A DNA stretch of 64,000 nt from the IMG/VR virus record IMGVR_UViG_3300046694_000299, positions 1-64,000 of that record. One strand, written 5' to 3'. A program made the translations under genes and the position numbers. This document shows positions 1 to 45,970 of the stretch, one piece after another. The first letter of the stretch is position 1; every line of letters starts with the position of its first letter. Source of the stretch: a virus. The notes beneath the pieces were generated by a model. The model was given only the letters and a program-made list of their open reading frames with translations, was not told where the DNA came from and made no database searches.

Positions 1-407
1 CCGATCGCGGTGGCCAGCATGGCGGCACCGGCGAACGGTACGGCGATGGTCAGGACGCCGGCCAAAGTCACGGTTGACAGGCTGTGGATCACCGAGGACA
101 GGCCCTTGCAGGCGAGCCAGACCGCGCAGCCGAGACCGATCGACCCGGCTCCGACTCCGATGGAGCCGACAGCGAGGCCGAGTGCCCAGGCGGGCACGAT
201 GCGGCTGTCGGGCTGCGGCACGGGCGGGGTGGTGCCGATGCGGGATCCGTCCCGCCAGGACGGCAGGTCGGGGTTGTCGTATGAGGTGGGCTTCTCGATC
301 TCGTCAACGGCGGCGACGAGGCGGCGAATTTGCTCGCGGTCGGTGTCGGTGGGGGTGGCCTGTCCGGCCGCGGGGGCGGTGGGCGTCGGCTCGGGCAGGA
401 CGGTCAT
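1..407 (-). CDS. Membrane protein, C-terminally truncated by the window edge (Spd-like candidate)
   Basis: My translation from ATG (revcomp of 405-407): MTVLPEPTPTAPAAGQ...AWALGLAVGSIGVGAGSIGLGCAVWLACKG...TVTLAGVLTIAVPFAGAAMLATAI. It has two or more hydrophobic helices and high third-position GC. It is not in the ORF track because it is truncated. Confidence 0.5.
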   Translation of the reverse strand, partial: MTVLPEPTPTAPAAGQATPTDTDREQIRRLVAAVDEIEKPTSYDNPDLPSWRDGSRIGTTPPVPQPDSRIVPAWALGLAVGSIGVGAGSIGLGCAVWLACKGLSSVIHSLSTVTLAGVLTIAVPFAGAAMLATAI

Positions 408-421
408 GGGGTCGGGGTCTC

Positions 422-1033
422 CTAGTCGATTTCGCCGGTGCCGGTGCACACCGTGCAGGGGATACGGCGGTTGCCGTGGATGTTGGATTCGAGGTCGAAG
501 CTGCCCTTGCCGCTGCAGGCGGGGCAGGCGTTGATCGGTTCGGGCGTGTAGTCGGGATCCGGCTGGTGGCCGCCGGCTTGGAGGCCCCAGGCGGCGCCGA
601 TCGCCCCGGCTTTGGCGGCTGCGACGGCGTTGCTGACGGGCTTCTTCGCGGCGCGCAGGGCCTTACGCTTCTGCCGTCGCAGGGCGGGCTTGATCAGTCG
701 CTTCCAGTACACGTCGCGCACGGCCCGCTTGAGGTCGTCGACGATGACGTCGGGGTGGAGGATCCCGGCGAGGACCGCGCCGCCGACTTCGATCTCGAAC
801 GTGTCGACGTCCTCGGCGCGTTCCCGGCCGGTGCTCGCGGCCTGGATCTCCTTGAGGTCTCCGATGGTGAGGAACAGGCTTTCCCAGCTGTGGTAGTTGG
901 AGCAGTTGCCCCGGGCGGGGAAGCCGTCGGAGAAGCCGCGGCCGTCGAGGGTGAAGCTCGCCGTATCGCACTCGGGGCACAGGTGGGGGAGCCCGTCGAT
1001 CGTCATCTGCTGGATTTTGAGCTCGGTGACCAT
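422..1033 (-). CDS. Cys-rich zinc-finger protein (C-terminal DnaJ-type CxxCxGxG pair)
   Basis: Start re-placed to MVTELKIQQ (ATG at 1033), preceded by AAGGAG. Motifs are CPECD at the N-terminus and CPACSGKGS...CTVCTGTG at the C-terminus. Confidence 0.6.
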   Translation of the reverse strand: MVTELKIQQMTIDGLPHLCPECDTASFTLDGRGFSDGFPARGNCSNYHSWESLFLTIGDLKEIQAASTGRERAEDVDTFEIEVGGAVLAGILHPDVIVDDLKRAVRDVYWKRLIKPALRRQKRKALRAAKKPVSNAVAAAKAGAIGAAWGLQAGGHQPDPDYTPEPINACPACSGKGSFDLESNIHGNRRIPCTVCTGTGEID

Positions 1034-1055
1034 TCCGGGATCTCCTTCGCTTTTC

Positions 1056-1217
1056 GGGTCGTGATGCGGGTCGTGATGGGTGGTGACAGTGCAGGCCAGA
1101 GCCGTGATGGGGGTCGTGATGGGTCGTGACGCCGTAACCACCTCGGGCGGGGAATCACCACCCCGTCACGACCTGCGTCACGACCCTGACCTGCGGCGTC
1201 AGAACCCCGTCACGACC
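1056..1217. repeat. Array of seven copies of GGTCGTGA(C/T)G: four direct, then three inverted
   Basis: Direct copies at 1056-1066, 1068-1078, 1111-1121 and 1121-1131. Inverted CGTCACGACC copies at 1164-1173, 1176-1186 and 1208-1217. The array lies in the gap between the translocase stop (1220) and the next start (1033). Confidence 0.85.
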
Positions 1218-1219
1218 TC

Positions 1220-3280
1220 TCAAGCAGCTGCGGCGACGCTTTCGCCGGTGATCTGCTTGATCGTGTCCAGGTGGTATCCGCGGGCTCCGCCGGTGACCTG
1301 AACGGTCGACATGTCGACGGCGAGGTTCATGGCGTCCACGGCGCGCTTCAGCTCGGCGGATACGCGCTGTGCGGCCGTCTTGCGGGATTTGATCTCGTCG
1401 TCGCCGAACAGGGACAGCGCCCAGACGTCGGAGTCGTAAGCGGCCAGGTACTCCCAGATCGCCAGCGTCGATAGGAACTTCGGGTCGTCGGCGGCGGCGA
1501 ACGCCCCGCGCACCATCATCACGATCTTCGGCAGGTCGGAGCGCAGCCGGTCCGCCTCGCTCGCACCGAAGTGATCCAGGCCTGCTGCGGCCAGCGACTC
1601 GGCATCGACCGTCGGGCGGCCGGCAGCGGCCCGCTCGCGTGCACGCCGCATGCCGTCCTGCTCGTCCAGGAAAAGGAACTTGTGCTTCAGCGGCTCACGG
1701 GAGCCACCACCGCGGATGTACGCCTGGGAGGCGTCACGCAGGTCGTCGCCCTTGGCGTTGCCCTCCGCAGGGTCGAGCCGGTCCGGCCGCCAGCCTTCGG
1801 CGCCCGCGCCAGCTCCGAAGACCTGCACAATGTCCTGGTGCCGGGACGGGCCGACGATCTTCAGGGCGATCGAGTCGGCGATGGCCTTGCCGATGGCGTC
1901 CTTCGTCGCCTCCTGTGCCGCGAGGATGAGCTGTACGCGGGACTTGCGGCCCGTCTGAAGGATCTTCACCGCCAGTTCCTTGGCCCGGTCGGAAAGCTGC
2001 GGGTACTCGTCGATGAACAGGACGATCGCCGGACGCTCGGGGGTCGGCTCCCAGTTCGCCTTCATGCCGAGCTTCGCGAACAGCGTCGGCCGGGCCTTCG
2101 CGATCCGGAGGGCCTGGTCGAGGATCGCCTCGATCTGTCCCATGTTGTCGTCTCCGATCGCCCGGACGCCGAGCGTCTCGGCGAGCGGGTCGAGACCGTT
2201 GCCGCCCGGGTCGAGGTCGCCGACCAGTACGTCGGAGCAGGCGGTCAGCGCATCGGCCATCGTCCGCAGGATCACGGACTTCCCGCCGCCGGAGGAGGCG
2301 ACGACGATGGCGTGCACGCCGAGCAGCGACGCCTCGAAGGTCTTGCCGTCCATACGGTGCGCGAGGACTTGCTTGTCCCGCATGCGGCGGCTGTTGGGCT
2401 TCCGCTCCGGTGCGCTGGGCATCTTCGCGAAAGGGTCGGACTGGACAAGGCGCAGGATCACCCGGCCGCGGGACTCCCGGACCGGCTGCGGCAGCAGACC
2501 GTTCTCGGGCAGGTCAAGCGGAGTCTCCAGGTCGGCGGCCTTGGTGACGATGTCGGCCGGCTTGCCCTTGGCGAGGCGGACGGTGACCTCCCAGCCCCAC
2601 TCGTAACGCCGGTTGGCCTCCACCTCCTTGACCTGGATGCCTTCGGAGGCGAGGGCGCGACGGACACACTCGGCGGCTTCGGTGCGGTTGCGGGCGTCGG
2701 CAATCGGGAACGGGTCGCCATCCTCGGCATGGATCTGAACCTTGCCCGGGTCGACGCTGCGGGGCCGGCCGCGCCACACCCCGGCCGTGACTGCCGCCAT
2801 CGCATAGACGGCGGCCATCCACAGCCCGCCTTCGATGAGCCCGTAGGTGGCTGCGCCGGCGACGGGTGCGGCGGCGATACCGCGGGGGATGAGGTAGCGG
2901 CTGCGCCGGTCCTTCAACTGCTGGGTGCGCCGGTTGGCGACGGCCTCGGCCTGCGCCTCCTTGGCCATGTCCCCGTTGGATGCCTTCACCTGCGCGCGAG
3001 CGGTGCGGATCATCTGCGGGTAGTCGCCGAGCATCTTGTCCCGCTCGATGCGGGCAATGTGCCACCAGCCGCGGGCGGACCATCCGATCCACACGACGGT
3101 GGGGTGGTGGCCGACAGTGCGAGCCGTGCGGCGGGCCAGCGCGGCACGGGAGTGAATCCAGGAGGGCAGCTGCCGCTGCGGGGTCGCAGGCCGCTTGTCG
3201 ACGGGGTAGTCGAGCGGCTGTGCGGGGGCTGTCTGTTCGGGCGCCGTCGCGGCCTTCTGAACGGTGGTCGGGGTGGCCAT
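1220..3280 (-). CDS. FtsK/SpoIIIE-family dsDNA translocase, TraB-like architecture
   Basis: 686 aa counted from MATPTTVQK. Hydrophobic N-terminal segments (GIAAAPVAGAATYGLIEGGLWMAAVYAMAAVTAGVW), Walker A VVASSGGGKSV, Walker B VLFIDEYPQL, then a C-terminal extension. Confidence 0.8.
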   Translation of the reverse strand: MATPTTVQKAATAPEQTAPAQPLDYPVDKRPATPQRQLPSWIHSRAALARRTARTVGHHPTVVWIGWSARGWWHIARIERDKMLGDYPQMIRTARAQVKASNGDMAKEAQAEAVANRRTQQLKDRRSRYLIPRGIAAAPVAGAATYGLIEGGLWMAAVYAMAAVTAGVWRGRPRSVDPGKVQIHAEDGDPFPIADARNRTEAAECVRRALASEGIQVKEVEANRRYEWGWEVTVRLAKGKPADIVTKAADLETPLDLPENGLLPQPVRESRGRVILRLVQSDPFAKMPSAPERKPNSRRMRDKQVLAHRMDGKTFEASLLGVHAIVVASSGGGKSVILRTMADALTACSDVLVGDLDPGGNGLDPLAETLGVRAIGDDNMGQIEAILDQALRIAKARPTLFAKLGMKANWEPTPERPAIVLFIDEYPQLSDRAKELAVKILQTGRKSRVQLILAAQEATKDAIGKAIADSIALKIVGPSRHQDIVQVFGAGAGAEGWRPDRLDPAEGNAKGDDLRDASQAYIRGGGSREPLKHKFLFLDEQDGMRRARERAAAGRPTVDAESLAAAGLDHFGASEADRLRSDLPKIVMMVRGAFAAADDPKFLSTLAIWEYLAAYDSDVWALSLFGDDEIKSRKTAAQRVSAELKRAVDAMNLAVDMSTVQVTGGARGYHLDTIKQITGESVAAAA

Positions 3281-3290
3281 GTGGGGGTCC

Positions 3291-4571
3291 TCAGTCCTTC
3301 TTCTGGCGGGCGGTCTTGGCGGCGATGGAGGCCTGCCGGCGGGCGGCGGCGACGTACTGCTGGGTGTCTCCGGACTGGCGTGCCGGAGGCTTGCGTGCGG
3401 GGCCTCGCTGAGTGCGGGGCATTTGGTTTGCACGCTGTGCGTTCGTGGTCTTGCTGAGGGTGTTGACGGGGGTGCCAGTGAGGGCCGCTTCGACGCGCTT
3501 CTCCGCCATGCGACGGCCGGTGATGACGTCGACGCTGTCGCCCGGGTCGGTGCCTTCGATGTCGCGGTGCGCGCGCTTCCAGACGGCTTCGGTGACGGTG
3601 GCCTCGCCGAGCGCGGCGGCCAGCTTCCGGGCGTGATCCCACACCTTCGGGAACTCCTTGGCCCGGGTCTCCGCGAGGTGCTTCGCCTCCTCGGCCGCAG
3701 CCTTGTCGGCGGCCTCCTTCTCGACCCTGCGGCGCTCCTCGGCGTCAGACTTCTCCTTGGCGATCCGCTTGACCTCGTTCTCTGCCGCCTTCCGCTCCCT
3801 GCACGTCAGTGCGCCGTCCCGCTTGCGGATGCGGCCGTGCTCGTGGAGGTCCCACACGCCGGGGCCAAAGATGGAGGCAAGTGCGGTACCGATGGCGGTC
3901 GCGAGGTCGAACTCGGTGATGCCGTGTCCGAAGTTCACGCTGGCGGCGATGAACGCGAGCACCCAGGTGATCAGACGGAAGTGCCAGTGCGGGCGCTGGT
4001 TCGCCACCGCCGCCGCCGTACCGAACGCGACGACGAGCGCCGCGATCTCCAGCAGGACGGGCGCGCCGGCCATCCACGGCTTGGCCGGGTTCCAGAACGC
4101 GGAGATCTGAACGGGCAGGGCGACGGCGGCGCACAGGGCGTAGAAGCTGATCGCCCAGCTGCGCCACTTCTTGTCGGCCTTCTCTACGTTCCTGGTCTGC
4201 TGTTCCTCGGCGTGCTGGTCGGCCTCGGCCTTCAGTCGAGCGGTCTCGCGGGCGCGCTCGGTTGCTTCCCGCTTGGCCTCCGCCTCTTCGATCTTCGCAA
4301 GCTGTTCCGCTTCCTCGCGGCGAAAGCGGAGCGCGGCACGCTCGTTGGCGAGGGCCTGCTTCTCGTTCTCCAGGCGCAGTTGCTCGGCCTTCTCGGCGGC
4401 GAGGACCTTCTCGGCGTCGGCTTCGCCCTCGGCCTTGATGCGCAGCGCCTCTGCTTCGGCGTCGGCGCGCTTCCGGATCGCCTCCGCCTCGGCCAGCGCG
4501 CGCGGATCGAACCGCGGCTCGGAGGCGACGGGCGTCCCGTTGACCTTCTTCTCGACGGATACGGCGGTCAC
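3291..4571 (-). CDS. Polytopic membrane protein with Glu/Ala-rich coiled coil (DUF2637-like)
   Basis: EA-rich N-terminus (AEAEAIRKRADAEAEALRIKAEGEADAEK), four central hydrophobic helices and a charged C-terminus. It sits directly upstream of the translocase. Confidence 0.6.
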   Translation of the reverse strand: MTAVSVEKKVNGTPVASEPRFDPRALAEAEAIRKRADAEAEALRIKAEGEADAEKVLAAEKAEQLRLENEKQALANERAALRFRREEAEQLAKIEEAEAKREATERARETARLKAEADQHAEEQQTRNVEKADKKWRSWAISFYALCAAVALPVQISAFWNPAKPWMAGAPVLLEIAALVVAFGTAAAVANQRPHWHFRLITWVLAFIAASVNFGHGITEFDLATAIGTALASIFGPGVWDLHEHGRIRKRDGALTCRERKAAENEVKRIAKEKSDAEERRRVEKEAADKAAAEEAKHLAETRAKEFPKVWDHARKLAAALGEATVTEAVWKRAHRDIEGTDPGDSVDVITGRRMAEKRVEAALTGTPVNTLSKTTNAQRANQMPRTQRGPARKPPARQSGDTQQYVAAARRQASIAAKTARQKKD

Positions 4572-4624
4572 GGTGGATCAGTCCTCTCGAATATCAGATG
4601 CGGCGTGGGTAGGGACTGCGAGGC

Positions 4625-5287
4625 CTACGCGGCCGGTCCCTCTGTAAGTTGGGCGAGCGCATTGGGGTCGGCACCGGTCGTCAGAGCTCGCTCGACGGAC
4701 CAGCCGGATTCATCGAGTCGGTCTATGACCGCCTGGGGCTTCAGCCCAAGAACTTCGGCCCACTCGGCGACCGCCTTGGTGCGCCCCCGGAAGGTCAGGT
4801 AGCGGTTGCGGCGGGTGTTCCGGGCCTGCTCCTTGTACGTCGCCCACCGGCAGTTACCGGGCTCGTAATTGCCGTCTACATCGACACGGTCGATCGTCAG
4901 GTGATCGGCGTAGGAGGGGCCCATGTCGCGAACGAAGGCCTCAAACGACTCGCGCCACTCCGGGCACACGGTGATTCCTCGCCCGCCGTAATCCGCGTAC
5001 CGATCAAAGTTCGGGTTGGTGGTGCGCGTGATCATTGCGCACCAGATCCTGTACAGGCGCGTGCCGCTCTGGCCGTGAGTGCGGCTGCGAGCGACCGTGG
5101 CTTCGCGAATGCCGCACCCGCAGGACGTCGTCCTGCCGCTCCTGAGGTCACCTCCGACCACAACCGTTTCGTTGCCGCACTCGCAGGTGCAGCGCCAGAG
5201 CACCTTCCCTGCGTTGCTACGGCCGGCTTCCTCGACGACGGCCAGGCGGCCAAACGTCTTGCCGGTTAGATCGACCTTGGGCGGCAT
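4625..5287 (-). CDS. Phage-type HNH-like endonuclease / DNA-binding protein
   Basis: CTCECG...SCGCG Cys cluster, YGGRGITVCPEW, LTIDRVDVDGNYEPGNCRWAT...QARN. This pattern is common in phage homing-nuclease-like proteins. Confidence 0.55.
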   Translation of the reverse strand: MPPKVDLTGKTFGRLAVVEEAGRSNAGKVLWRCTCECGNETVVVGGDLRSGRTTSCGCGIREATVARSRTHGQSGTRLYRIWCAMITRTTNPNFDRYADYGGRGITVCPEWRESFEAFVRDMGPSYADHLTIDRVDVDGNYEPGNCRWATYKEQARNTRRNRYLTFRGRTKAVAEWAEVLGLKPQAVIDRLDESGWSVERALTTGADPNALAQLTEGPAA

Positions 5288-5310
5288 GTGCGCGGTGTCC
5301 TTTCGGAGGG

Positions 5311-5505
5311 TTAGCGGCGGCGGTTGCGGGTGCTGCGCCAGCCGAACGGGCCGGGCAGGTTGAACGAGGTGGTGTCGCGGCCGGTCGAACTGCGGGTGTG
5401 CTGCAGCCCGTTCCGGGACCCGACGGTGATCGACCAGGAGCGGCGGTTGATGTTCAACCGGACGCCGGGGAAGATCCGGATGCTCTTGCGGAACGTGATC
5501 GGCAT
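5311..5505 (-). CDS. Small basic protein (DUF4236-like)
   Basis: Start re-placed to MPITFRKSIRIFPGVRLNINRRSWSITVG. ATGA overlap with the upstream gene stop at 5505. Confidence 0.5.
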   Translation of the reverse strand: MPITFRKSIRIFPGVRLNINRRSWSITVGSRNGLQHTRSSTGRDTTSFNLPGPFGWRSTRNRRR

Positions 5506-5714
5506 CAACGCCTCCGGGCGGGCGCAGGAGCGGGACGACGGCGGGCGGACGTGATCAGGCCGACGGCTGCGGCGAGCAGCAGCACGGCCGGCTGGGCGAG
5601 GACGGTGAACGCGCCCGTCGCAGCCAGCTCGACCGGGGTCGCAGCCGCAGGCCACAGGCCAACGACCAGCAGGTAAGCCCCCAGCAAGAGCCAGAGGATG
5701 GGGTGACGACGCAT
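5505..5714 (-). CDS. Small membrane protein
   Basis: 69 aa, two hydrophobic helices (ILWLLLGAYLLVVGLW; AVLLLAAAVGLI). Confidence 0.5.
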   Translation of the reverse strand: MRRHPILWLLLGAYLLVVGLWPAAATPVELAATGAFTVLAQPAVLLLAAAVGLITSARRRPAPAPARRR

Positions 5715-5816
5715 GACGGCCTCTCTCGAAGGTTTCGGTGGGATGGGGCTGGCCGGTTCTCCTTGGGCCCCGGGCGAGCCGGGGACCGCGGGCAGCCGGT
5801 CAGCTGCAGGGGTGGG

Positions 5817-6011
5817 TCAGCCGCGCTGGTAGCGGGCTTCGACGCCGGTGATCCGCTCGCCCGGCTTCAGCTGCTTGCTGACCTGGTCGGCGGCGTCCGC
5901 TTCGGCCCGCTGCTTCCCGTACATGGGGCTCGGGTTCGACACGGTCCCCGGCACCTCGCGCTTGCTGCCGGACTGGTCGGTGACGGTGACCTTCGCCTTG
6001 AACATGGCCAT
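5817..6011 (-). CDS. Hypothetical protein
   Basis: Start re-placed to MAMFKAKVTV, with GAGAGGA upstream. High GC3. Confidence 0.45.
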   Translation of the reverse strand: MAMFKAKVTVTDQSGSKREVPGTVSNPSPMYGKQRAEADAADQVSKQLKPGERITGVEARYQRG

Positions 6012-6092
6012 GAGGGGTTCCTCTCGGTGGGGGTTGGAACGCTGAGCGGTTCCCCTCACCGCCCGTGCGAGACGGGCGGATCGGGCAGCCGG

Positions 6093-6281
6093 TCAGCGGC
6101 GCTGGGTGGCGGCAAAGTCGTCGGCGGTGCAGCCCTGGGCGGTGGCCCGGTCGGTCAGCCCGACCGCCACGGTCAGGGCCTGGCCTGCCTCGGGGCTGCC
6201 GAGACCGTGCGTGTACACGGCCTGCATCGCGATCTCACCGGCCTCGACGGCGTCCTTCGCGGCATGCTGCCTACTGGTCAT
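6093..6281 (-). CDS. Hypothetical protein
   Basis: 62-aa ORF on the same strand as its neighbours. Confidence 0.4.
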   Translation of the reverse strand: MTSRQHAAKDAVEAGEIAMQAVYTHGLGSPEAGQALTVAVGLTDRATAQGCTADDFAATQRR

Positions 6282-6322
6282 GGGTGGGGTCCTTTCGGGT
6301 GGCGGGTGGTCGGGTCGGCCGG

Positions 6323-6511
6323 TCAGGCCTGGCGGAGCTGGTCTTCGGTGAAGGTCGGGGTCCCGAGCGTCAGGTCGAGCTGCGGGTCGCGGAGGCCGTC
6401 GACCTGCACCCGTCCGTCGCCTGTCGGCCAGGCCTCGCCGGTCTTCCCGACCAAGCCGGGCGCGTCCGGGCTGGACGTGACGGTCACCTGGTCACGCTTC
6501 TTGATCGCCAT
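6323..6511 (-). CDS. Hypothetical protein
   Basis: 62-aa ORF with a strong GAAGGAGA RBS upstream. Confidence 0.5.
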   Translation of the reverse strand: MAIKKRDQVTVTSSPDAPGLVGKTGEAWPTGDGRVQVDGLRDPQLDLTLGTPTFTEDQLRQA

Positions 6512-6652
6512 GGGTCTCCTTCGATGCGGTGGACGGGTGGTGGTGCGCGCCCCGGGCTGCGTTCGCGGCGACGTCCGTGGTGACCGGACCGGGGCTGGGC
6601 CGTGGCGGCGGGGCCGCGGGGGACGAATCCCACCGCCACGGGGATCAGGGGG

Positions 6653-6883
6653 TCAGGCGGCGGCCGGGTAGTCGAAGCCGTCGAACTCGGCGAGCAGGTC
6701 CGCGTCGGCGACGAGGCGGATCTGCCGCATGCGGGCCAGATCCCCGTCGCCGCGAGCCTTGGCGTACTCGCCGAACAGGTCGGTGATGGACAGGACGGTC
6801 GCCTCGGCGACAGTCGTGTTCGCGCGGGCCTTCCGGCCGAGCTCGGTGGCGCCAAGATCGGCAGAGAACAGGTACGGAGACAT
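6653..6883 (-). CDS. Hypothetical protein
   Basis: 76-aa ORF with protein-like composition. Confidence 0.45.
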   Translation of the reverse strand: MSPYLFSADLGATELGRKARANTTVAEATVLSITDLFGEYAKARGDGDLARMRQIRLVADADLLAEFDGFDYPAAA

Positions 6884-6937
6884 GGGGGATCACAGATCCT
6901 CTCGGGATCACAGAAGGTGGGTGGGGGTGAGGGAGGG

Positions 6938-7168
6938 TCAGGCGGTGGTGCGGGAGATGAGTGCGGCGATCACGTCCTGCGTGATCTCGGCGGGCAGCAG
7001 GCCCTTGTCGATCGCCGCGAGGGTGGCGAACTCGCGGGCAATCCGCTCGCGGCCCTCCATCAGGTCCTTCTCGATGCCGCGGATGTGGCTCAGGTCTGCG
7101 TAGTACTGCTCGTGCGTCGCAGCGGCCTTTCGCAGTAGCTCGGCGGCCTCTTCGAGGTATCGGGACAT
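6938..7168 (-). CDS. Hypothetical helical protein
   Basis: 76-aa ORF with GGAGGG upstream. Confidence 0.5.
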   Translation of the reverse strand: MSRYLEEAAELLRKAAATHEQYYADLSHIRGIEKDLMEGRERIAREFATLAAIDKGLLPAEITQDVIAALISRTTA

Positions 7169-7347
7169 GACGGAGCCCTCCAGGGCGGGAAGCAGGTGGG
7201 GACGGTGGGGGGTGGGGCACCACTGGCGGAGACGGGGGGGGGTTGTCGATCCGCCAGCGGCGGTCTTGGGGGTCTAGCGGGGCCGGGTCTCGGACTGGTG
7301 GTTCTGCTCGCGCAGCTTGCGGAGCAGCTCCGCGTACTCGGCGTCGG

Positions 7348-7521
7348 TCATCGCTGGCCGCCTTCGTCCGTGACGACGAGGAACTGGTCGCTGGGCAGGT
7401 CCTGCACGACGGTCACGGGGATGCCCTGGTCGCGGAACTGCTGCGCCTGCTCCTCCGCCGGCCAACTGCCGCGCGGGTGGCCGGCCTGGGTGGCGGCGAG
7501 GATCTTGCGGGTCGCGCTCAC
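7348..7521 (-). CDS. Hypothetical protein (GTG start)
   Basis: My translation: VSATRKILAATQAGHPRGSWPAEEQAQQFRDQGIPVTVVQDLPSDQFLVVTDEGGQR. GTGA overlap with the upstream stop at 7518-7521. It is below the ORF-track length cutoff. Confidence 0.4.
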   Translation of the reverse strand: MSATRKILAATQAGHPRGSWPAEEQAQQFRDQGIPVTVVQDLPSDQFLVVTDEGGQR

Positions 7522-7754
7522 CAGTCCTCCCCAGGCAGGTAGCCCTCGCGGAGCTTGGCGGCGTCCTCGCGGTATTCCTGGGCGTGATTCCGGGCGAACC
7601 CGGCGGCAGTCTTGGCCTGGGCGCGAAGCGTGGGGCTGTTGGTCGGGTCGGCGGCGGCGCGGTCGCCGGATGCGGCAGCGGCGTCGGATCGTGCTGCCGC
7701 CCGCTCGGAGTCGGCTGCCATGGCGCGCATCTCGGCGCGGGACGGGCGGGCCAT
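7518..7754 (-). CDS. Hypothetical protein
   Basis: Start re-placed to MARPSRAEMRAM. ATGA-type overlap with the upstream stop at 7754. Confidence 0.45.
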   Translation of the reverse strand: MARPSRAEMRAMAADSERAAARSDAAAASGDRAAADPTNSPTLRAQAKTAAGFARNHAQEYREDAAKLREGYLPGEDW

Positions 7755-8170
7755 CACGCCGCCGCCTTCACGCTCTGCGGCTGGGCGAGGGTGGCGCGCC
7801 GCAGGTCGAGGGCGGGCTGCCCGTACAGGACGGTCGCCTTGCCGAGGAGGGAGGCGTAGTCGCGGTCCATCCAGTCGAGCGCTTCGGCCCGGTCCTGGGC
7901 GTCCATCTGGACGAGCGCCTCGCCCTGCCGGTCGCGTCCGGCGACCACGAGGACGATGGTGCCGTCCGGGGCTACCGGGGACACGTATTCGACGGTGACC
8001 TCGATGAGCGCCCACCGGCCGGCCATGTCGGCGAGCAGCTGGTCGCCTGCGGTGCGGATGCGGCCGTTGACGTTCAGGCCGCGCAGGTACTTCTCGCGGG
8101 CCCGCCACGTCACGTGGGAGGCGGAATCGTGGGCGGCACGGTCGGCCGGGGACTGGGTTGCGGTGCTCAT
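7754..8170 (-). CDS. Hypothetical protein
   Basis: 138-aa ORF with globular-looking composition. Confidence 0.55.
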   Translation of the reverse strand: MSTATQSPADRAAHDSASHVTWRAREKYLRGLNVNGRIRTAGDQLLADMAGRWALIEVTVEYVSPVAPDGTIVLVVAGRDRQGEALVQMDAQDRAEALDWMDRDYASLLGKATVLYGQPALDLRRATLAQPQSVKAAA

Positions 8171-8424
8171 ACCGTCACCGCCTCAACGCCGAGGATCTCG
8201 GCGAGGCGTCGCTGCGGGATGCGCCAGTCGAGCGGGGCAGTCCCGGTGAGGACGGCGGCCAGGCGGGCGGTGTCGATGCCGGCGACACAGGCGAGCGCCT
8301 CGACCGAGTGCGACAGGTCCGGGTTGTAGTGCGCGGCCCGCATCTGCATCCGCAAGCGGAGCACGGCGGGCGACATGCCCCGGTGATCGGCGCGCTCGGG
8401 CGCCGGTACGATCTGTGTAGCCAT
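8167..8424 (-). CDS. Small HTH-like regulator, first gene of the leftward array
   Basis: Start re-placed to MATQIVPAP. Contains LSHSVEALACVAGIDTARLAAVLTG. Divergent from the plus-strand gene at 8658. Confidence 0.5.
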   Translation of the reverse strand: MATQIVPAPERADHRGMSPAVLRLRMQMRAAHYNPDLSHSVEALACVAGIDTARLAAVLTGTAPLDWRIPQRRLAEILGVEAVTV

Positions 8425-8657
8425 GAGGGGACCCTTCAGAGATTCCTCGTGGTGAGGGCCGGCCTGCGATGTAGGAGTCGCGGTGTCCGGCCCGTCTTCA
8501 TTTGTGGGGTGCCGTCCGCGGACTGGGTCCGGTAGGAGTGGACGACTGGCGACTTCAAGGGGGTCCTTGTAGCCGTTGAGGTACATCCTGTAGCGAGCCG
8601 CACCTCACTGTCAAGGGGCGTCTTGAAGTGGCGGCAAATGGCCCATACGCTACGTCC
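8425..8657. promoter_or_regulatory. Divergent intergenic control region
   Basis: 233-bp gap between oppositely oriented HTH genes. GC is locally lower. Confidence 0.35.
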
Positions 8658-31969: not shown

Positions 31970-33262
31970 ATGCCCGGATACATCGAAGACCGCTGGTACA
32001 AGAAGGGCCCCGACGGGAAGCGAAGCCTGCCCACCGACCGCAACGGCCAGGGCAAGCGCTACAAGGTCGCCGGAATCCCCGGCGTCCGGGCCCGCTCCTT
32101 CGACAACCTGACGGGCGCGAAGGGGGCAAAGGCCTGGCTGGCGAAGGCCCAGCATCAGGCGTCGGCAGGGGAGTTCATCGATCCGCGCCGCGGCGAAATC
32201 CTCCTCCGGGACTACATCGAGGAGGAGTGGTGGCCGAACAAAGGCTACGACGACCCGGCGACGGCGAACACGGTGCACAGCCGGGTCTGGACGCACGTCA
32301 TCCCGCACCTCGGCAACCTGCAGCTGAACGCGGTCAAGACGCCCCAGCTGAAACGCTGGCTCGCCGAGCTCAAAGGCGGCGTCGGCCCGGGGACGGTCAA
32401 CGAGGCCTGGCACTACCTGGCTTCGATCCTGCAGTCGGCAGTCGATGACGAACGGATCACCAAGAACTACTGCCGTTCCCAGCAGTCGGTGCGGCCTCCC
32501 TCGCGGCCGTCACCGAAGCCGCGCGCCTGGAGCAAGGAGCGGGTACTCGACGTTCAGAAGGCGATGGACCCGCGGTTCCAGATCGCCGTCGACATCGGCG
32601 TCGGGGCCGGCCTGAGGGCGGGCGAGGTCTTCGGGCTCGCCCTGGAGGACATCGACGAGGAGAACGAGCGGATCCACGTCAGGCGGCAGATCAAGAAGGT
32701 CGGGTCCAAGCTCTGCTACGCGCTGCCGAAGGGGCAGAAGACGCGGGACGTGCCGGTGCCCTCGTATCTCCTGAAGCGTATTTCGGATCATCTGGCTGCA
32801 CGGCCCGCGCAGTTGGTGAAGCTGCCATGGTCGAACCCCGCCCCGGGCGAGACGGAGCGCGAGAAGGAGCTGCGGGAGCCGCGGGAGCACGCGCTCATCC
32901 TTCCCGGACCGAACGGGGGCGGGATGCGCCGAGACGCCTGGGACACGCGCATCTGGAAGCCGGCCCTTTCGGGGGCGGGCGTCATCGGGCCGCCTGAGGT
33001 AACGAAGCAGCCGGTCCGGTCGCGCCCCGGCGTGACCCGCACGGTGAAGACTTACGCGGAGAGCCGGGAGAACGGCTTCCATGCCCTACGGCACACGTTC
33101 GCGTCGGTGCAGCTGGATGCGCGGGAGCCGATCGTGGCAGTCTCTCAGTGGCTGGGGCACGAGAACGCGTCGATCACGCTGAGGATCTACGCGCACATGA
33201 TGCCGGAGGCGGACGGGCGGGGCCGCACGGCGATGCAGAACTGGTTCGAGGGATCTTCCTAA
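31970..33262 (+). CDS. int: Tyrosine integrase
   Basis: 430 aa. N-terminus IEDRWYKKG...GKRYKV. Catalytic region AGLRAGEVFGL...HALRHTFAS...LGHENASITLRIYAHM. Confidence 0.85.
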   Translation: MPGYIEDRWYKKGPDGKRSLPTDRNGQGKRYKVAGIPGVRARSFDNLTGAKGAKAWLAKAQHQASAGEFIDPRRGEILLRDYIEEEWWPNKGYDDPATANTVHSRVWTHVIPHLGNLQLNAVKTPQLKRWLAELKGGVGPGTVNEAWHYLASILQSAVDDERITKNYCRSQQSVRPPSRPSPKPRAWSKERVLDVQKAMDPRFQIAVDIGVGAGLRAGEVFGLALEDIDEENERIHVRRQIKKVGSKLCYALPKGQKTRDVPVPSYLLKRISDHLAARPAQLVKLPWSNPAPGETEREKELREPREHALILPGPNGGGMRRDAWDTRIWKPALSGAGVIGPPEVTKQPVRSRPGVTRTVKTYAESRENGFHALRHTFASVQLDAREPIVAVSQWLGHENASITLRIYAHMMPEADGRGRTAMQNWFEGSS

Positions 33263-37489: not shown

Positions 37490-38569
37490 CTATGGGGTTC
37501 CACCCCGACGCAGCCCGGCGGCCGCGTTGTCGTCCCATTCGTCGGCGAGCTGCATGTAGCCGAGCATGGCTTTGCTGCCTGGAGCCCAGCCACCCTGCTT
37601 GGCGATGTTCACCGGGTCCTTCCCGTTCTTGCGGCCCTCTGTGGCGAGCCCGGAGCGCAGCGAGTGGCCTGTCCAGCGGATCGGCACGCCGGATCGTTGG
37701 GCGACGCGGGCGACCGCGTTGGTGACGGAGTCGGGCGCCATCGCTCCGCCGATGTGCCCCCAGCGGTCGATCTGAGGGAAGGCGGCCGCCGTCAACTCGG
37801 TGCGCCCGTAGACCTCGCGCCATTGCTGCCAGGCGCGAACGGCGCAGATCTCCGGCTCGTCGATGTTGTACGGGATGGCGACGGTGCGCACGGACCGCTT
37901 CGTCTTGCCAGTGACGACGGCGACCTTGATGCCGCGGGCGTGGACGGTGATGTCGGCGAGGAGTAGGCCGGAGATCTCCGAGGCGCGGGAGGCGAAGTGG
38001 AAGCCGGTCAGGATCAGGGAGAGGTCGCGTCGGCCGGTGGGGCTGTCGTCACAGGCGGCTGCGATGCGGTGCAGGCTGTCGAGGTCGGCGGCCGCGGCCT
38101 TCCCGCGGCCGCGTCGCTCTCCGGCCTTGGCCAGCTGGGTGGCGATGCCTTCCAGCCGGGCGCGTGCTTCGGAGTGGGCGTCCTTGGTTACGGGGCGGCC
38201 GCGCTCGCGTAGGCCGACGATGGCGGCGGTGAGGTGGGAGTGGGCGGAGGTGGGCGCGTATCCGCGGCCGCCGTCGCGGCTGGGGGTTGCGCGGCCACGG
38301 TCGAGCATCCAGGCGACGTAGGCGACGAGCGCGCCGCGGGATCCTTCCGTCTCCGGGAGGCCCTGCTCGACACAGAAGCGCTGCCACACCTTCCAGCCCT
38401 TGCTGTAGGTGTCGGTCGTGTTGGGCGGGGTGGTCGCCTCTTTGATGGCGTCGGCGAAGTCTTCGGCGGCCGCGAGCCGTTCGGCGGCCGCTTCGCCGTG
38501 ACGGGCCGCCCATGCGGTCCGGATCTCCTCCGGCACTCCTCGGCTGAGCTTTTCTACGGACCCGTCCAC
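37490..38569 (-). CDS. Tyrosine recombinase, Cre/XerD-like (GTG start)
   Basis: N-terminal core-binding-type domain (NTTDTYSKGWKVWQRFC). Catalytic FHFASRASE...GHSLRSGLATE...LGYM. AAGGAGAG RBS upstream. Confidence 0.75.
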   Translation of the reverse strand: MDGSVEKLSRGVPEEIRTAWAARHGEAAAERLAAAEDFADAIKEATTPPNTTDTYSKGWKVWQRFCVEQGLPETEGSRGALVAYVAWMLDRGRATPSRDGGRGYAPTSAHSHLTAAIVGLRERGRPVTKDAHSEARARLEGIATQLAKAGERRGRGKAAAADLDSLHRIAAACDDSPTGRRDLSLILTGFHFASRASEISGLLLADITVHARGIKVAVVTGKTKRSVRTVAIPYNIDEPEICAVRAWQQWREVYGRTELTAAAFPQIDRWGHIGGAMAPDSVTNAVARVAQRSGVPIRWTGHSLRSGLATEGRKNGKDPVNIAKQGGWAPGSKAMLGYMQLADEWDDNAAAGLRRGGTP

Positions 38570-38669
38570 ATCTCTCCTTGATGCCGCGTCAATACCCTTT
38601 TGTCGCACGGGATATGAAGAGTGTATCCGGGGTGAGGTCAGCTGGGATGGGCTTCCGGACAAGAAGAAG

Positions 38670-38691
38670 CGCCCCTCCCGGAGGAGGGGCG
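38670..38691 (-). terminator. Intrinsic terminator after the lysis cassette
   Basis: CGCCCCTCC, loop CGGA, GGAGGGGCG, with a T-rich tail on the minus strand. Confidence 0.65.
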
Positions 38692-38796
38692 TCGTCACTC
38701 GGTCTCGTCATCGACCACGGGCCAGGGTGGCGGTTCGAGGAACGGCCACGGCGACAGCCAGAACGGCGGCGGGTCTTCATCGTCCATGCGGTCCCC

Positions 38797-43235: not shown

Positions 43236-43516
43236 ACACTGCCATCGCCATCACCGCGATCATCGCCGCCGTCGTCCTCGCGAACTCCATCGTGATCGCC
43301 GTCCGCGACGTCGCGAAGGCCAAGCACCAGGCGGCGGACGGTCCAGCCGAGGTGGCCATCGCTCGCGTTCGCGCAGTATGCGACCAGTTGCACCGCGCGT
43401 CCGTCCTCGCTGACGGACAGCCGCACACCGACCGCGAACGCGGCGTCATTCAGGCAGTCAGCCGCGTCGTCGCGGCCCTCGACGGCGACACCAACAGCAA
43501 GGAGAGCAACGGATGA
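43232..43516 (+). CDS. N-terminally anchored membrane protein (GTG start)
   Basis: VNTAIAITAIIAAVVLANSIVIAV... Confidence 0.5.
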   Translation: MNTAIAITAIIAAVVLANSIVIAVRDVAKAKHQAADGPAEVAIARVRAVCDQLHRASVLADGQPHTDRERGVIQAVSRVVAALDGDTNSKESNG

Positions 43517-44466
43517 GCGTCTACGGAGTCAGCGGAGGGCAGGGCTTCATCGGCTCCTACGTGCGCAGGGAGCTCCTCGCGCGCGGCCACGAGGTCGTCG
43601 TCTTCGACCGCCACCCCCACACCGAGATGGCGTCCGGCGAGACCTTCTTCCTCGGCGACATCCGCGACGAGACGTCCGTGGTGGAACTCGCCGCGCACGT
43701 CGAGGGGATCATCCACCTTGCCGCCGTGCTGGGCACGCAGGAGACGATCGGAAACCCGAGGCCGTCCGCCGACACCAACATCCGGGGCAGCCTCAACGTG
43801 TTCGAGGCGGCCAACCAGTACGGGCTCCCCGCCGTCTACGCGGGCGTAGGGAACGCGTTTATGCGCGACCTCGGCACCGGCTCGTACACGATCAGCAAGA
43901 CGTGCGCCGAGGACTACGCGCGGATGTTCAACGCCTACCGGGGCGGCAAGGTCACCATCGTCCGCCCCGTCAACGCCTACGGGCCTGGTCAGTCGATCGC
44001 AGCCCCCTACGGAACGAGCCGAGTGAGGAAGATCCTCCCGGCCCTGACCTGCCGTGCCCTCACCGGCGCCCCCATCGAGGTGTACGGGGACGGCACCCAG
44101 ATCTCCGACTGCGTGTACGTCGCCGACGTCGCCCGCGCGTTCGTCACCGCGCTCGAGCACACCGCCGTCAACGGGCCCACGGAGAAGCCGGTGGAGGTCG
44201 GGCCGCTGGAGTCCCTCACCGTCAACGACATCGCGCGCCTCGTCGCCGAGGAAGCCACCCGGTACACGGGCCGCGAGCCTGTCGCGATCAAGCACCTGCC
44301 GATGCGGCCGGGCGAGGTGCCGAACGCGGTCGTGTCGTCCGACACCAGCACGCTCCAGCAGATCGGCATGACCGCCAAGGACTTCGTGCCCCTCGATGAG
44401 GGCATCCACCACACCGTCCGCTACTACGCCGAGCAGTGGCTGCCCGGATATCTGGCGGCGGCATGA
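43513..44466 (+). CDS. NAD-dependent sugar epimerase/dehydratase (extended SDR)
   Basis: GGQGFIGSY and the catalytic SYTISK (YxxxK). Confidence 0.8.
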   Translation: MSVYGVSGGQGFIGSYVRRELLARGHEVVVFDRHPHTEMASGETFFLGDIRDETSVVELAAHVEGIIHLAAVLGTQETIGNPRPSADTNIRGSLNVFEAANQYGLPAVYAGVGNAFMRDLGTGSYTISKTCAEDYARMFNAYRGGKVTIVRPVNAYGPGQSIAAPYGTSRVRKILPALTCRALTGAPIEVYGDGTQISDCVYVADVARAFVTALEHTAVNGPTEKPVEVGPLESLTVNDIARLVAEEATRYTGREPVAIKHLPMRPGEVPNAVVSSDTSTLQQIGMTAKDFVPLDEGIHHTVRYYAEQWLPGYLAAA

Positions 44467-44963
44467 GGCGACTCGACGTCGACGGGCACACGATCCTCAT
44501 CGACAGCGAAGATGTACCGCTCATCAGCGGCTTTCATTGGCGAGTCGTCGCGACCAATCCAACTTGCCCCGACAACCTGTACGCCGTGACTTGCCGAAGG
44601 CGGCTGTACGTCTACATGCATCGCCTCATAGCTGGGGCGGGCCCCAGCGAAGAAGTTGACCACGCCAACGGCAACGGCCTCGACAACCGCAAGAACAACC
44701 TTCGCATCGCTACGGATTCTCAGAACCAAGCGAACAAGGGAAAGATCAGAGTCAAAGGAAAGCGAGGCACCTCCCAGTACAAGGGCGTGTTCTGGGATAA
44801 AGCAAGGAGCGCTTGGGCGACGTCGATCACCGTCAACAAGCGCACGCGCCACCTCGGCCGATTCAGCACGGAAGAGGAGGCCGCTCGCGCCTATGATCGC
44901 GCCGCTATCGCAGCCTGGGGCGAGTTCGCGCGGCTGAACTTCGAAGAAGGAGTCGCCGCGTGA
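44463..44963 (+). CDS. HNH endonuclease with an AP2 DNA-binding domain
   Basis: VDHANGNGLDNRKNNLR, then YKGVFWDK...WATSITVNKRTRHLGRFSTEEEAARAYD. GC is locally lower. Confidence 0.75.
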   Translation: MRRLDVDGHTILIDSEDVPLISGFHWRVVATNPTCPDNLYAVTCRRRLYVYMHRLIAGAGPSEEVDHANGNGLDNRKNNLRIATDSQNQANKGKIRVKGKRGTSQYKGVFWDKARSAWATSITVNKRTRHLGRFSTEEEAARAYDRAAIAAWGEFARLNFEEGVAA

Positions 44964-45970
44964 GGGTGCACTTCTGGTCGGCTGACGAGGCGGGGTCATC
45001 ACTTTATAGAGCGATCCTGCCCGGTATGAGCCTGCAATGGCTTGGGCACGCCGTGTCCGCCGGGATGCGGCTCCCGAAGGACTGGCCCGCCCTGGATGTG
45101 GTCGTCGGCTGCCGGGTTGCCAAGCCTGAGCCGACCATGATGTGGCAGCGATTGAAGGACGAGGGGAAACGCCTCGTCCTCGACCTCGACGACGACTACT
45201 TCCACCTCGACCCCGTCAACCTGGCCGCCGTCCGCACCTGGGACAAGGCGATGCTGCAACGCCTCGCCGACAACATGGCGCTCGCCGACCTCGTCACCTG
45301 CTGCTCCGAGCCCCTCGCCGCCGTGCTGCGGGACTACGCGGCCGACGTCCGGGTCGTCCCCAACGGCCTGCCGGCGCAGTACCTGGGCACGCCCCGCGAC
45401 TACGAGGCGAAGGACCGTCCACTGTCCGTCGGCTGGGCCGGCACGTCGTCCACGGTCGCCGAGCTGCCCGAGGCCGTCCGTGCCCTGAACCGGATCTCGC
45501 AGTACCCGCGATCCGGCGGCGTCCAGGTCCGGATCGTCGGCATCGCTCCCGAGCACGCCATGGCGCTCGGTCTCCGCGGCCGGCAGATCGGGGCTTTGGG
45601 TTGGGTGGAGCGGCACGAGCACTACATGCAGGCGGTCGGCGAGTGGGACGTGTGGGTGGCGCCGTACCGGGACATCCCGTTCAACCGGGCGAAGTATCCG
45701 ACGAAGTGGCTGGAGTCATCGATGCTCGGCATCCCGCTGATCGCATCGGACATCGAGCCGTACCGCCGGGTGATCCGGCATGGGGAGAACGGGTTCCTCG
45801 TCAAGCACGAGCACCAGTGGGGGAAGTACCTCAAGCTCCTCGTCGATAATCCCGGGCTGCGGCAGCAGATCGGGATGACGGCCCGAGGCGAGGCGTCTGG
45901 GTCGATCCTCCAGGCCATCAACGTTCAGTGGCAGGACGCGCTTACGGCCCCGGCGGGGGTGGCGGCATGA
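44960..45970 (+). CDS. GT-B fold glycosyltransferase (GT1/GT4-like; GTG start)
   Basis: C-terminus KWLESSMLGIPLIASDIEPYRRVIRHGENGFLV. Confidence 0.7.
   Translation: MRVHFWSADEAGSSLYRAILPGMSLQWLGHAVSAGMRLPKDWPALDVVVGCRVAKPEPTMMWQRLKDEGKRLVLDLDDDYFHLDPVNLAAVRTWDKAMLQRLADNMALADLVTCCSEPLAAVLRDYAADVRVVPNGLPAQYLGTPRDYEAKDRPLSVGWAGTSSTVAELPEAVRALNRISQYPRSGGVQVRIVGIAPEHAMALGLRGRQIGALGWVERHEHYMQAVGEWDVWVAPYRDIPFNRAKYPTKWLESSMLGIPLIASDIEPYRRVIRHGENGFLVKHEHQWGKYLKLLVDNPGLRQQIGMTARGEASGSILQAINVQWQDALTAPAGVAA

Follow-up and report, generated by a model that had tools for sequence, protein, structure and literature searches.

Why would a tailed phage carry what looks like the double-stranded DNA (dsDNA) transfer apparatus of a Streptomyces plasmid? 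The question arises from positions 1 to 64,000 of the IMG/VR virus record IMGVR_UViG_3300046694_000299 (64,000 nt, hereafter the window), an actinobacterial, high-G+C stretch (64-72%). Near its left end, a gene for a 686-amino-acid (aa) FtsK-like ATPase is preceded by a gene for a membrane protein resembling the plasmid spread protein SpdB2 and is followed by an array of short repeats that recalls the plasmid transfer locus clt. A first-pass annotation had seen here a plasmid-style combination of a TraB-like ATPase, membrane proteins and repeats inside a phage, and the FtsK fold, the synteny with plasmid pFP1 and the placement of the array at the clt position, all described below, support that view. 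Arguing by analogy with the plasmid systems, we think it reasonably probable that the locus is a Streptomyces conjugation-type dsDNA transfer module of the TraB/clt/SpdB2 type, carried by a temperate siphovirus and acting on the phage's own DNA.

TraB/clt/Spd systems are already well known in plasmids and in elements of actinomycetes that are both integrative and conjugative (AICEs). A full-text literature search found no description of a widespread, integrase-bearing siphophage family with the full triad, a dyad array and matched variants of recognition helix and repeat word.

A Membrane-Anchored FtsK-Type Motor With a Predicted DNA-Reading Domain

The candidate TraB-like dsDNA translocase (686 aa; 1220..3280, minus strand, ATG at 3280) has the architecture that the first-pass annotation described, as its open reading frame, motifs and hydrophobic N-terminal part bear out. 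A hydrophobic stretch at aa 134-169 (2774-2881, peak Kyte-Doolittle value 1.47) provides the membrane anchor, and the FtsK-type motor (about aa 180-535, 1676-2743) contains both a Walker A motif, VVASSGGGKSV (aa 326-336, 2273-2305), and a Walker B motif, VLFIDEYP (aa 420-427, 2000-2023), all on the minus strand. More than 100 full-length homologues (662-689 aa, 50-92% identity, sharing a MATPT start) are present in the protein collection, from many Streptomyces genomes and from soil metagenomes. Walker A residues G331-S335 and Walker B residues D424/E425 do not vary across 37 homologues. The ratio of nonsynonymous to synonymous divergence in the family (dN/dS) is 0.19-0.31 at a synonymous divergence (dS) of 0.54-0.66, and the family appears to be under purifying selection.

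Among PHROG profiles the translocase belongs to phrog_12531, annotated as 'FtsK/SpoIIIE-like' (E 4.6e-111). An AlphaFold2 model built from the 37 homologues had a mean predicted local distance difference test score (pLDDT) of 66, with values of 70-90 in the motor and the C-terminus. Its best 12 PDB matches in Foldseek were all FtsK motor domains (6t8o, 6t8g, 2iut, 2ius; E 8.5e-10 to 3e-7, probability 1.0, TM(target) 0.51-0.59), and the next were the conjugation coupling protein TcpA and then EssC/EccC. These results establish intact ATPase motifs, a membrane anchor and an FtsK-type fold, the RecA-like motor of FtsK alpha/beta domains that marks dsDNA translocases of the FtsK/SpoIIIE-HerA superfamily.

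Beyond the motor lies a predicted winged-helix-like domain (aa 585-680, 1241-1528, minus strand), whose predicted recognition helix spans aa 629-651 (1328-1396). Modelled separately as the last 131 residues of the protein, this domain reached a pLDDT of 82.6 and showed a helix-strand-helix-helix-strand-wing-strand order. Its PDB matches were weak (best E 0.05), and almost all of them were winged helices (MukE, histone H1/H5, forkhead, MarR). The predicted topology is that of a winged helix, which the first-pass annotation had suggested looking for at this place.

A Dyad-Symmetric Repeat Array at the 3′ End of the Translocase Gene

A 161-bp array on both strands (1057..1217) begins 3 nt past the translocase stop, within a 186-bp spacer (1034-1219) that separates this stop from the ribosome-binding site (RBS) of the next gene. 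The word GGTCGTGAY occurs eight times in the 64 kb, against 2.1 occurrences expected, and no shuffle reached eight; seven of the eight copies lie within 1057-1217. The array is real and non-random. Perfect copies are found on the plus strand at 1057, 1069, 1112 and 1122 and on the minus strand at 1165, 1177 and 1209, with degenerate copies at about 1079, 1103, 1134, 1155 and 1196. Given four copies one way, three the other way and the degenerate copies, the spacer is dyad-symmetric. The seven-copy array reported earlier directly after the ATPase gene is thus present, but as two opposed arms (4 + 3) rather than one head-to-tail series.

Embedded among the words is an inverted 11-mer, GCAGGTCAGGG (1184-1194, minus strand), which is conserved family-wide and has a degenerate partner at 1091-1101. 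As single-stranded DNA the 186-bp spacer could fold into a long hairpin (-48.5 kcal/mol, z = -3.1). The array and the likely promoter region of the following gene overlap, and the array finishes at that gene's RBS.

Published clt loci offer a direct comparison. In plasmid pWTY27, the TraA protein has 688 aa and two transmembrane helices; clt, of which 16 bp lie in traA and 159 bp downstream of it, has direct as well as inverted repeats of 7 bp, and binding to it occurs in vitro (PMC3583192). In both position and form, the candidate site in the phage matches such loci.

Repeat Words and Predicted Recognition-Helix Residues Vary Together

Related loci were drawn from genomes, IMG/VR and metagenomes, and 32 distinct loci included the C-terminal domain and enough downstream sequence. 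The array is present with the same layout in all 32 (32/32), starting within about 25 nt of the translocase stop. Two words come first, then GCAGGTCA(G/C)GG and three or four further words, and after these the mirror image with CC(C/T)TGACCTGC, which ends at the RBS of the next gene. The inverted 11-mer pair GCAGGTCA(G/C)GG ... CC(C/T)TGACCTGC is invariant in all arrays (L004-L054), whatever the word. Identity of the array between loci is 82-87% at a dS of about 0.64, which far exceeds the neutral-site expectation. These comparisons show an array at the clt position that is conserved and, judged by its divergence, selected.

The word itself differs between loci, with at least six types. The word GGTCGTGAC was found at 13 loci, (A)CCGTGAC at six, and AACCGCTG and GCCGTGAA at one locus each, while the group of relatives at 50-56% identity carries GGCGTGAC, CCGTGAC(G/A) and GTGACA. 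The residues that discriminate between words map to H2 and H3, two predicted helices of the C-terminal domain. The recognition-helix motif R(K/R)(T/A/S)AAQ is paired with GGTCGTGAC at 13/13 loci, and RLAGAK or ALAGA(K/R) is paired with (A)CCGTGAC at 6/6; there is no exception among the 13 and six loci of these two large classes. Taken over both helices, AIWEYL with (S/A)R(K/R)(T/A/S)AAQ accompanies GGTCGTGAC, I(L/V)DYL with RLAGAK accompanies ACCGTGAC and ILEYL with VHLLAARR accompanies AACCGCTG, and further helix types go with GCCGTGAA, GGCGTGAC and GTGACA.

A tree of the N-terminal and motor part mixes the word classes. The nearest relatives of the window, L009 and L013, belong to the other class, and the same is true of L006 beside L004. 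Because the classes are interleaved in this tree, at least three independent switches are implied. The tree of the C-terminal domain sorts strictly by repeat word. Between the window and L009/L013, nucleotide identity is 85-93% in the motor, 23-72% in H2/H3, 83-87% over the last 60 nt of the gene and 60-75% in the array; comparisons between loci of the same class lack the dips at H2/H3 and the array. For TraB of pSVH1, a passage in PMC3583192 summarises that helix alpha3 reads 8-bp repeats. The co-variation in the phage family is what is expected if the predicted helix reads the word, and on this pattern we consider it quite likely that the C-terminal domain of the translocase binds the array.

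The array also follows the pump rather than its neighbors. The gene that comes first after the array in the window, encoding a zinc-ribbon protein, is present in most relatives and is absent or replaced in L014, L015, L034 and a distant group, where the array stays with the pump. Nor does repeat type depend on the type of terminase: type A is found alongside phrog_38, 9 and 2, type B alongside phrog_38 and 9. A 21.7-kb metagenome contig (L049) provides an independent example of a pump with its own array. It encodes an 854-aa homologue (1442-4006; 42% identity over aa 173-674) with another C-terminal domain, and five to seven direct GGTAGAC(A) repeats follow the gene directly (4006-4130).

A SpdB2-Like Partner and Homologues in Plasmid Transfer Regions

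All real genes of 1-8.6 kb are on the minus strand, and the order of transcription runs from an HNH endonuclease gene (4625-5287) through the gene for a 426-aa membrane protein (3291-4571), the translocase gene (1220-3280) and the 186-bp spacer to the zinc-ribbon gene (422-1033) and a further membrane-protein gene (1-407). Only 10 nt separate the stop of the 426-aa gene from the translocase start.

The 426-aa protein (3291..4571, minus strand) is the candidate SpdB2 counterpart, by homology to a DUF2637 protein and by architecture. Published SpdB2 proteins have four transmembrane helices and an N-terminal coiled coil, and act as pore-forming spread proteins that interact with TraB (PMC4447253). 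By hydropathy, composition and gene position, the phage protein has the same features: four transmembrane helices, an N-terminal coiled coil, a length within about 400-480 aa and a place in the same operon. An A/E/R/K-rich N-terminus forms the A/E-rich coiled-coil region (about aa 20-135, 4167-4514) and is followed by three strong hydrophobic helices and one weaker one (aa 139-245, 3837-4157), in agreement with the earlier description of a four-helix, EA-rich coiled-coil protein. It is homologous to the DUF2637 protein of plasmid pFP1 (BLASTP E 3e-14; hhalign probability 98.2%), and a SpdB2-like neighbor is retained down to 50% translocase identity. The protein matched nothing in all phage records. 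SpdB of pIJ101 was considered as a relative and proved unrelated on comparison.

The motor points to the same plasmids. In pFP1 (NC_006912) and five Streptomyces plasmids like it, of 40-63 kb, the transfer region holds an FtsK-like translocase gene to which the motor is 46-47% identical. Identity is 32-35%, C-terminal domain included, between the translocase and proteins encoded by large Streptomyces plasmids. Similarity to pIJ101 Tra is remote: against the profile of the translocase family, hhalign gave a probability of 71.8% (E 3.5e-5) over the motor, aa 311-502.

One Temperate Phage Element

Other parts of the window carry phage genes. At 15.8-24.9 kb are genes for a DNA methyltransferase, a helicase of the DnaB type, a Sak4-like protein and an exonuclease. 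Encoded further along are tyrosine integrases at 31970-33262 (plus strand) and 37490-38698 (minus strand), an endolysin and a peptidase at 40.1-42.2 kb, and minor tail proteins, a 1550-aa tape measure (55128-59780, minus strand) and a major tail protein at 50.5-61.2 kb. The first-pass annotation had counted complete tail, lysis and capsid modules. Tail and lysis genes are indeed present, but no capsid gene was identified in the window, and terminase and portal lie beyond its left end.

The metagenome contig L058, which encodes an identical pump and is 99.99% identical to window positions 1-12627, extends 7.5 kb past that end. The extension contains the rest of the membrane-protein gene cut at position 1, small genes, endonuclease VII, the large terminase (phrog_38) and the portal (phrog_104), the last two 6.5 kb beyond the window's left end. 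With L058 supplying the terminase side, the module is seen to lie in a single phage, flanked on the same strand by early genes and by packaging genes. The window and the overlapping L058 contain a temperate tailed-phage gene set (terminase, portal, tail, lysis and integrase). Since the pump-to-terminase junction (in L058) and the lysis-integrase-early junctions (in the window) occur in essentially identical DNA, the sequenced template was circular or permuted and not integrated at that integrase.

In six relatives, genes for a large terminase, a portal or both lie some 4-6 kb downstream of the pump, with a major head gene in addition in L009. These genes were typed with PHROG profiles, tblastn across loci having been too insensitive. 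Terminase and portal genes of three different PHROG types lie beside the module, and so mosaic phages share it. No integrase, plasmid Rep or att-like repeat was seen near the module; both integrases are more than 28 kb away, and the window contains no long direct repeats that could serve as att sites. Many translocase homologues are on long chromosome-sized contigs, up to 9.3 Mb, which fits a temperate lifestyle.

Neighboring Genes and Other Features of the Window

The zinc-ribbon protein (203 aa; 422-1033, minus strand) has N- and C-terminal CxxC motifs and a weak DnaJ_CXXCXGXG match, and its gene, which the first-pass annotation had passed over, lies between the array and the gene at 1-407. 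As a possible Spd protein of the plasmid type it was rejected, because it is not homologous to the genes at the equivalent position of pFP1 and CP108056. At 1..407 (minus strand) are the first 135 of 177 aa of a phrog_19266 membrane protein with two or three hydrophobic helices, consistent with the multi-helix membrane protein noted earlier; it is cut at the window end and is complete on L058. Upstream of the SpdB2-like gene, the HNH endonuclease (4625-5287, minus strand; phrog_374, E 1.6e-77) is directly adjacent and was seen only in this element (the window, L058 and L059). It is preceded by a gene for a small DUF4236 protein (5311-5508, minus strand), which was found again in L007 and L011. 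In the distant relatives L024 and L026, epimerase- and glycosyltransferase-like genes come directly after the transfer module.

Two Nudix hydrolase genes (9063-9701, with an N-terminal Xre-like helix-turn-helix [HTH] domain, and 9698-10108, both plus strand; Pfam NUDIX, E 1.4e-15 and 7.3e-23 for the pair) lie on the strand opposite to the module, and their linkage to it is kept in L007, L010, L011, L012 and L058. Where the upstream flank of relatives is available, the Nudix pair and the SpdB2-like gene are usually upstream of the pump. Pif is a Nudix conjugal-immunity factor of pSAM2, and other AICEs carry clusters of Nudix and HTH-Xre genes (PMC2440964). Going by linkage, the pair may be associated with the module and, speculatively, a counterpart of Pif.

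Elsewhere in the window, the two integrase genes are convergent, with about 4 kb of lower G+C (64-67%) between them. An island at 43513-48442 (plus strand), between the lysis and tail genes and on the opposite strand, carries nucleotide-sugar epimerase and glycosyltransferase genes. Residues 1049-1503 of the tape measure also match an 'endolysin' PHROG, which suggests an embedded cell-wall hydrolase domain. No tRNA genes were found within the 64 kb, a scan for consensus promoters and terminators in 1-9200 gave nothing exceeding chance, and no relevant known RNA families were found within 1-10500. DNA nearly identical to positions 1-8000 or 1-25000 was absent from the phage and plasmid collections.

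Comparison With Known Systems

The closest functional parallel is the TraB/clt/SpdB2 system of pSVH1, pIJ101 and pWTY27. Shared features are a lone FtsK-like ATPase of about 650-770 aa that is anchored in the membrane and has a DNA-recognition domain (here predicted) at its C-terminus, short repeated words as a cis site at the 3′ end of its gene, and a partner of the SpdB2 type, with four transmembrane helices and a coiled coil, in the operon; a Nudix gene lies nearby, as it does in many AICEs. The phage module differs in lying inside a tailed-phage genome between replication and packaging genes, in the strict dyad symmetry of its array with an invariant inner inverted repeat, and in having no adjacent GntR-type repressor.

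Plasmids of the pFP1 type contain the closest cellular relatives of the motor, and in pFP1 and CP108056 the translocase gene is preceded by a gene for a DUF2637 protein homologous to the SpdB2-like protein. Their translocases are longer (863 aa where annotated, in CP108056) and have a different C-terminal region, with matches ending at about aa 568. CP108056 also has a small zinc-binding gene annotated between the DUF2637 and translocase genes, GntR regulators are found upstream in the plasmids, and a comparable dyad array was not seen downstream.

Matches in the phage collection are restricted to the motor domain (45-49% identity) and to lytic Streptomyces phages of the BE cluster, such as Yaboi, Karimac and MulchMansion (phrog_12531), and no record covers 80% of the translocase. 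The FtsK-like proteins of these phages have about 600 aa (602 aa in Yaboi) and another C-terminal domain, with neither a SpdB2-like neighbor nor an array, and their genes lie among tRNA genes of genomes of about 130 kb. The translocase family thus does not simply group with ordinary actinophage FtsK-like proteins devoid of repeats, an outcome that the first-pass annotation had allowed for: the BE-cluster proteins share only the motor and have no arrays. The function of these BE-cluster genes (74659-76467 in Yaboi, and those at loci L027 and L028) may differ.

An FtsK-type motor joined to a C-terminal winged helix that reads an 8-bp word is also the arrangement of the FtsK gamma domain with KOPS and of SpoIIIE with SRS. 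The predicted domain organization of the translocase is alike. The words of the phage are clustered at one site and not dispersed and polarized over a chromosome, however, and they belong to a mobile element and not to a cell-division protein.

There is also a precedent for the idea of a conjugative phage. Zhong et al. are said to have described, in 2010, pZL12/phiZL12 of Streptomyces sp. 9R-2 as a 90-kb plasmid prophage with ParAB that is conjugal via a major tra gene and adjacent genes. Being a tailed phage and at the same time conjugally transferable, this Streptomyces element supplies an experimental precedent; it differs in being an autonomous plasmid prophage with ParAB, whereas members of the present family carry integrases and occur on long chromosome-sized contigs. 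Passages of PMC3583192 and PMC4487206 cite pZL12 as a plasmid-phage with a functional tra locus. A circular Streptomyces plasmid (NZ_CP109494, 90,308 bp) with ParAB, a PhlD-type type III polyketide synthase, RusA, WhiB and a single-stranded DNA-binding protein looks, by size and genes, like the pZL12 type. It shares an 80%-identical 400-bp stretch with window positions 13119-13519. Two of its large open reading frames were considered as counterparts of the pump and the SpdB2-like protein and were unrelated to them. SpdB2 homologues have also been noted in phiC31 and VWB and suggested to help spread phage DNA (PMC4447253).

Proposed Mechanism and Alternative Explanations

In the conjugation-type reading, the 686-aa protein, whose fold is that of FtsK, would work as a membrane-anchored hexameric pump. 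Its C-terminal winged-helix-like domain would read the 8-9-bp words of the array, as the co-variation suggests, and this reading would single out the circular phage genome, replicating or excised, as the DNA to be moved, a task that clt performs in plasmids. Following the plasmid paradigm, the pump would then move unprocessed dsDNA through the membrane into neighboring mycelium, which amounts to conjugation (PMC4447253, PMC3429521, PMC3583192). Under the same paradigm, the destination could alternatively be the next hyphal compartment across a cross-wall, reached with the co-transcribed SpdB2-like pore protein in a form of intramycelial spreading. Phage replication would supply the copies needed for a non-conservative dsDNA transfer (see PMC3429521), and the Nudix pair may, speculatively, act like Pif in suppressing futile transfer from one lysogen to another. 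Overall, the phage would gain a way of spreading or lysogenizing that is independent of virions.

Several observations weigh against this interpretation. Pfam FtsK_SpoIIIE (PF01580) did not match the translocase at E ≤ 0.01, where AAA_22 appeared only below threshold, and the translocase profile reached FtsK among PDB sequences at just E 0.016. Pfam DUF2637 matched 0/7 members of the SpdB2-like family at E ≤ 1. The profile searches proposed in the first-pass annotation accordingly gave a mixed answer, strong for the PHROG 'FtsK/SpoIIIE-like' family and blank for the Pfam FtsK_SpoIIIE and DUF2637 models; more broadly, Pfam, NCBIfam and PADLOC gave no decisive name to the translocase, the SpdB2-like protein, the zinc-ribbon protein or the membrane protein at 1-407. 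For the winged-helix assignment, the underlying model has no significant PDB match (best E 0.05). The dyad symmetry and the invariant inverted 11-mer are not accounted for by the TraB/TRS model, and no Kor/TraR repressor of the GntR type, typical of plasmid tra operons, was seen adjoining the module. Because no record of the phage collection carries the full translocase, the lifestyle of the elements is deduced from gene content. Finally, less than 400 bp separate the recognition helix from the array, and simple linkage within one exchanged cassette could explain part of the co-variation; as a whole explanation this is weakened by the conserved 60-nt stretch that separates the two divergent patches.

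Other functions for the module have to be weighed against the same evidence. The FtsK-like protein could interfere with, or take advantage of, host development by mimicking FtsK/SpoIIIE at sporulation or vegetative septa, clearing or segregating DNA (for example, moving copies of the prophage or phage into spores), with the array as a KOPS-like loading or orientation signal. A developmental or segregation role has been suggested in general terms for actinophage ftsK genes (PMC10117723), and both the fold and the two opposed repeat arms, which recall polar loading sites, would suit it. We regard it as unlikely, given that the repeat word is concentrated at one locus (7/8 copies), unlike the dispersed and polarized KOPS, and that the closest non-phage relatives are in plasmid transfer regions beside the same SpdB2-like partner; it also overlaps with the intramycelial-spreading branch of the transfer interpretation, from which it is hard to separate in silico. 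A prophage exclusion or defense device, in which the membrane ATPase and its membrane-protein partners block or expel incoming DNA so as to exclude superinfection or conjugation, is quite unlikely. Here the array would be only an operator through which the C-terminal domain autoregulates downstream genes, and its overlap with the likely promoter region of the following gene, up to whose RBS it runs, would suit such a role, while PADLOC returned a weak match of the translocase to mad8 (E 1.8e-9, aa 321-532) and matches of the Nudix proteins to the candidate PDC-S07. Yet the mad8 match is confined to the P-loop region, which is generic, two arms with about 11-14 binding words go far beyond the need of an operator, the array is kept when the downstream gene is replaced, and homology and synteny indicate transfer operons.

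The array might instead have nothing to do with the pump, being a phage cis site that is near the translocase gene by linkage only, either an iteron replication origin or a pac/cos site for a small terminase. Its place, with the early region on one side, the packaging region on the other and the large terminase 6.5 kb downstream, the existence of Streptomyces plasmid iteron origins with long inverted repeats (PMC3583192) and the capacity of the region to fold into a long hairpin (z = -3.1) are compatible with such a site. We judge it very unlikely, since no more than about 25 nt lie between the translocase stop and the start of the array in 32/32 loci whatever follows, its type is independent of terminase or portal type and tracks the predicted recognition-helix residues over at least three independent switches, and L049, with another C-terminal domain, has its own different repeats in the same position. 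Least credible of all is that 1-8.4 kb represents a plasmid remnant or a separate AICE that entered a prophage or the DNA beside it. The first-pass annotation had considered this possibility, together with a tandem insertion of two elements, and the Tra-like, Spd-like and Nudix content does resemble an AICE (PMC2440964), with two integrase genes in the window. Those integrases are more than 28 kb off, no integrase, Rep, att-like repeat or other boundary lies near the module, and the module lies between phage genes of its own strand, with HNH, small early genes, DnaB and Sak4/exonuclease on the upstream side and endonuclease VII, large terminase and portal on the downstream side. The arrangement moreover recurs in relatives with three different downstream terminase/portal types, and the module does not have the make-up of an AICE (about 9-24 kb, with Int, Rep and Tra, bounded by att sites). 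We therefore rejected a separate AICE or tandem insertion.

Implications for Phage Spread in Streptomyces

Streptomyces grows as compartmented, multigenomic hyphae. To our knowledge, how a phage or prophage spreads through such hyphae, or reaches cells to which it cannot adsorb, is largely unknown. A phage-borne TraB/clt/SpdB2 module would, if our interpretation is true, provide a concrete and testable mechanism of spread in mycelial bacteria. Extending the analogy with plasmids, we tentatively suggest that a widespread lineage of temperate Streptomyces siphoviruses may be bimodal, producing virions and also pumping naked dsDNA via its own array, a TraB-type motor and a SpdB2-type pore, and that motor-array pairs may diversify by cassette exchange that keeps co-resident elements orthogonal. 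If so, the line between phages and conjugative elements would be blurred in a second, integrative lineage besides pZL12, and the module could also mobilize host DNA bearing clt-like sequences. The natural pairs of helix and word are a ready-made specificity code for FtsK-type winged helices, usable for orthogonal DNA-transfer tools. The finding opens virion-independent phage spread in mycelial bacteria to direct experiment.

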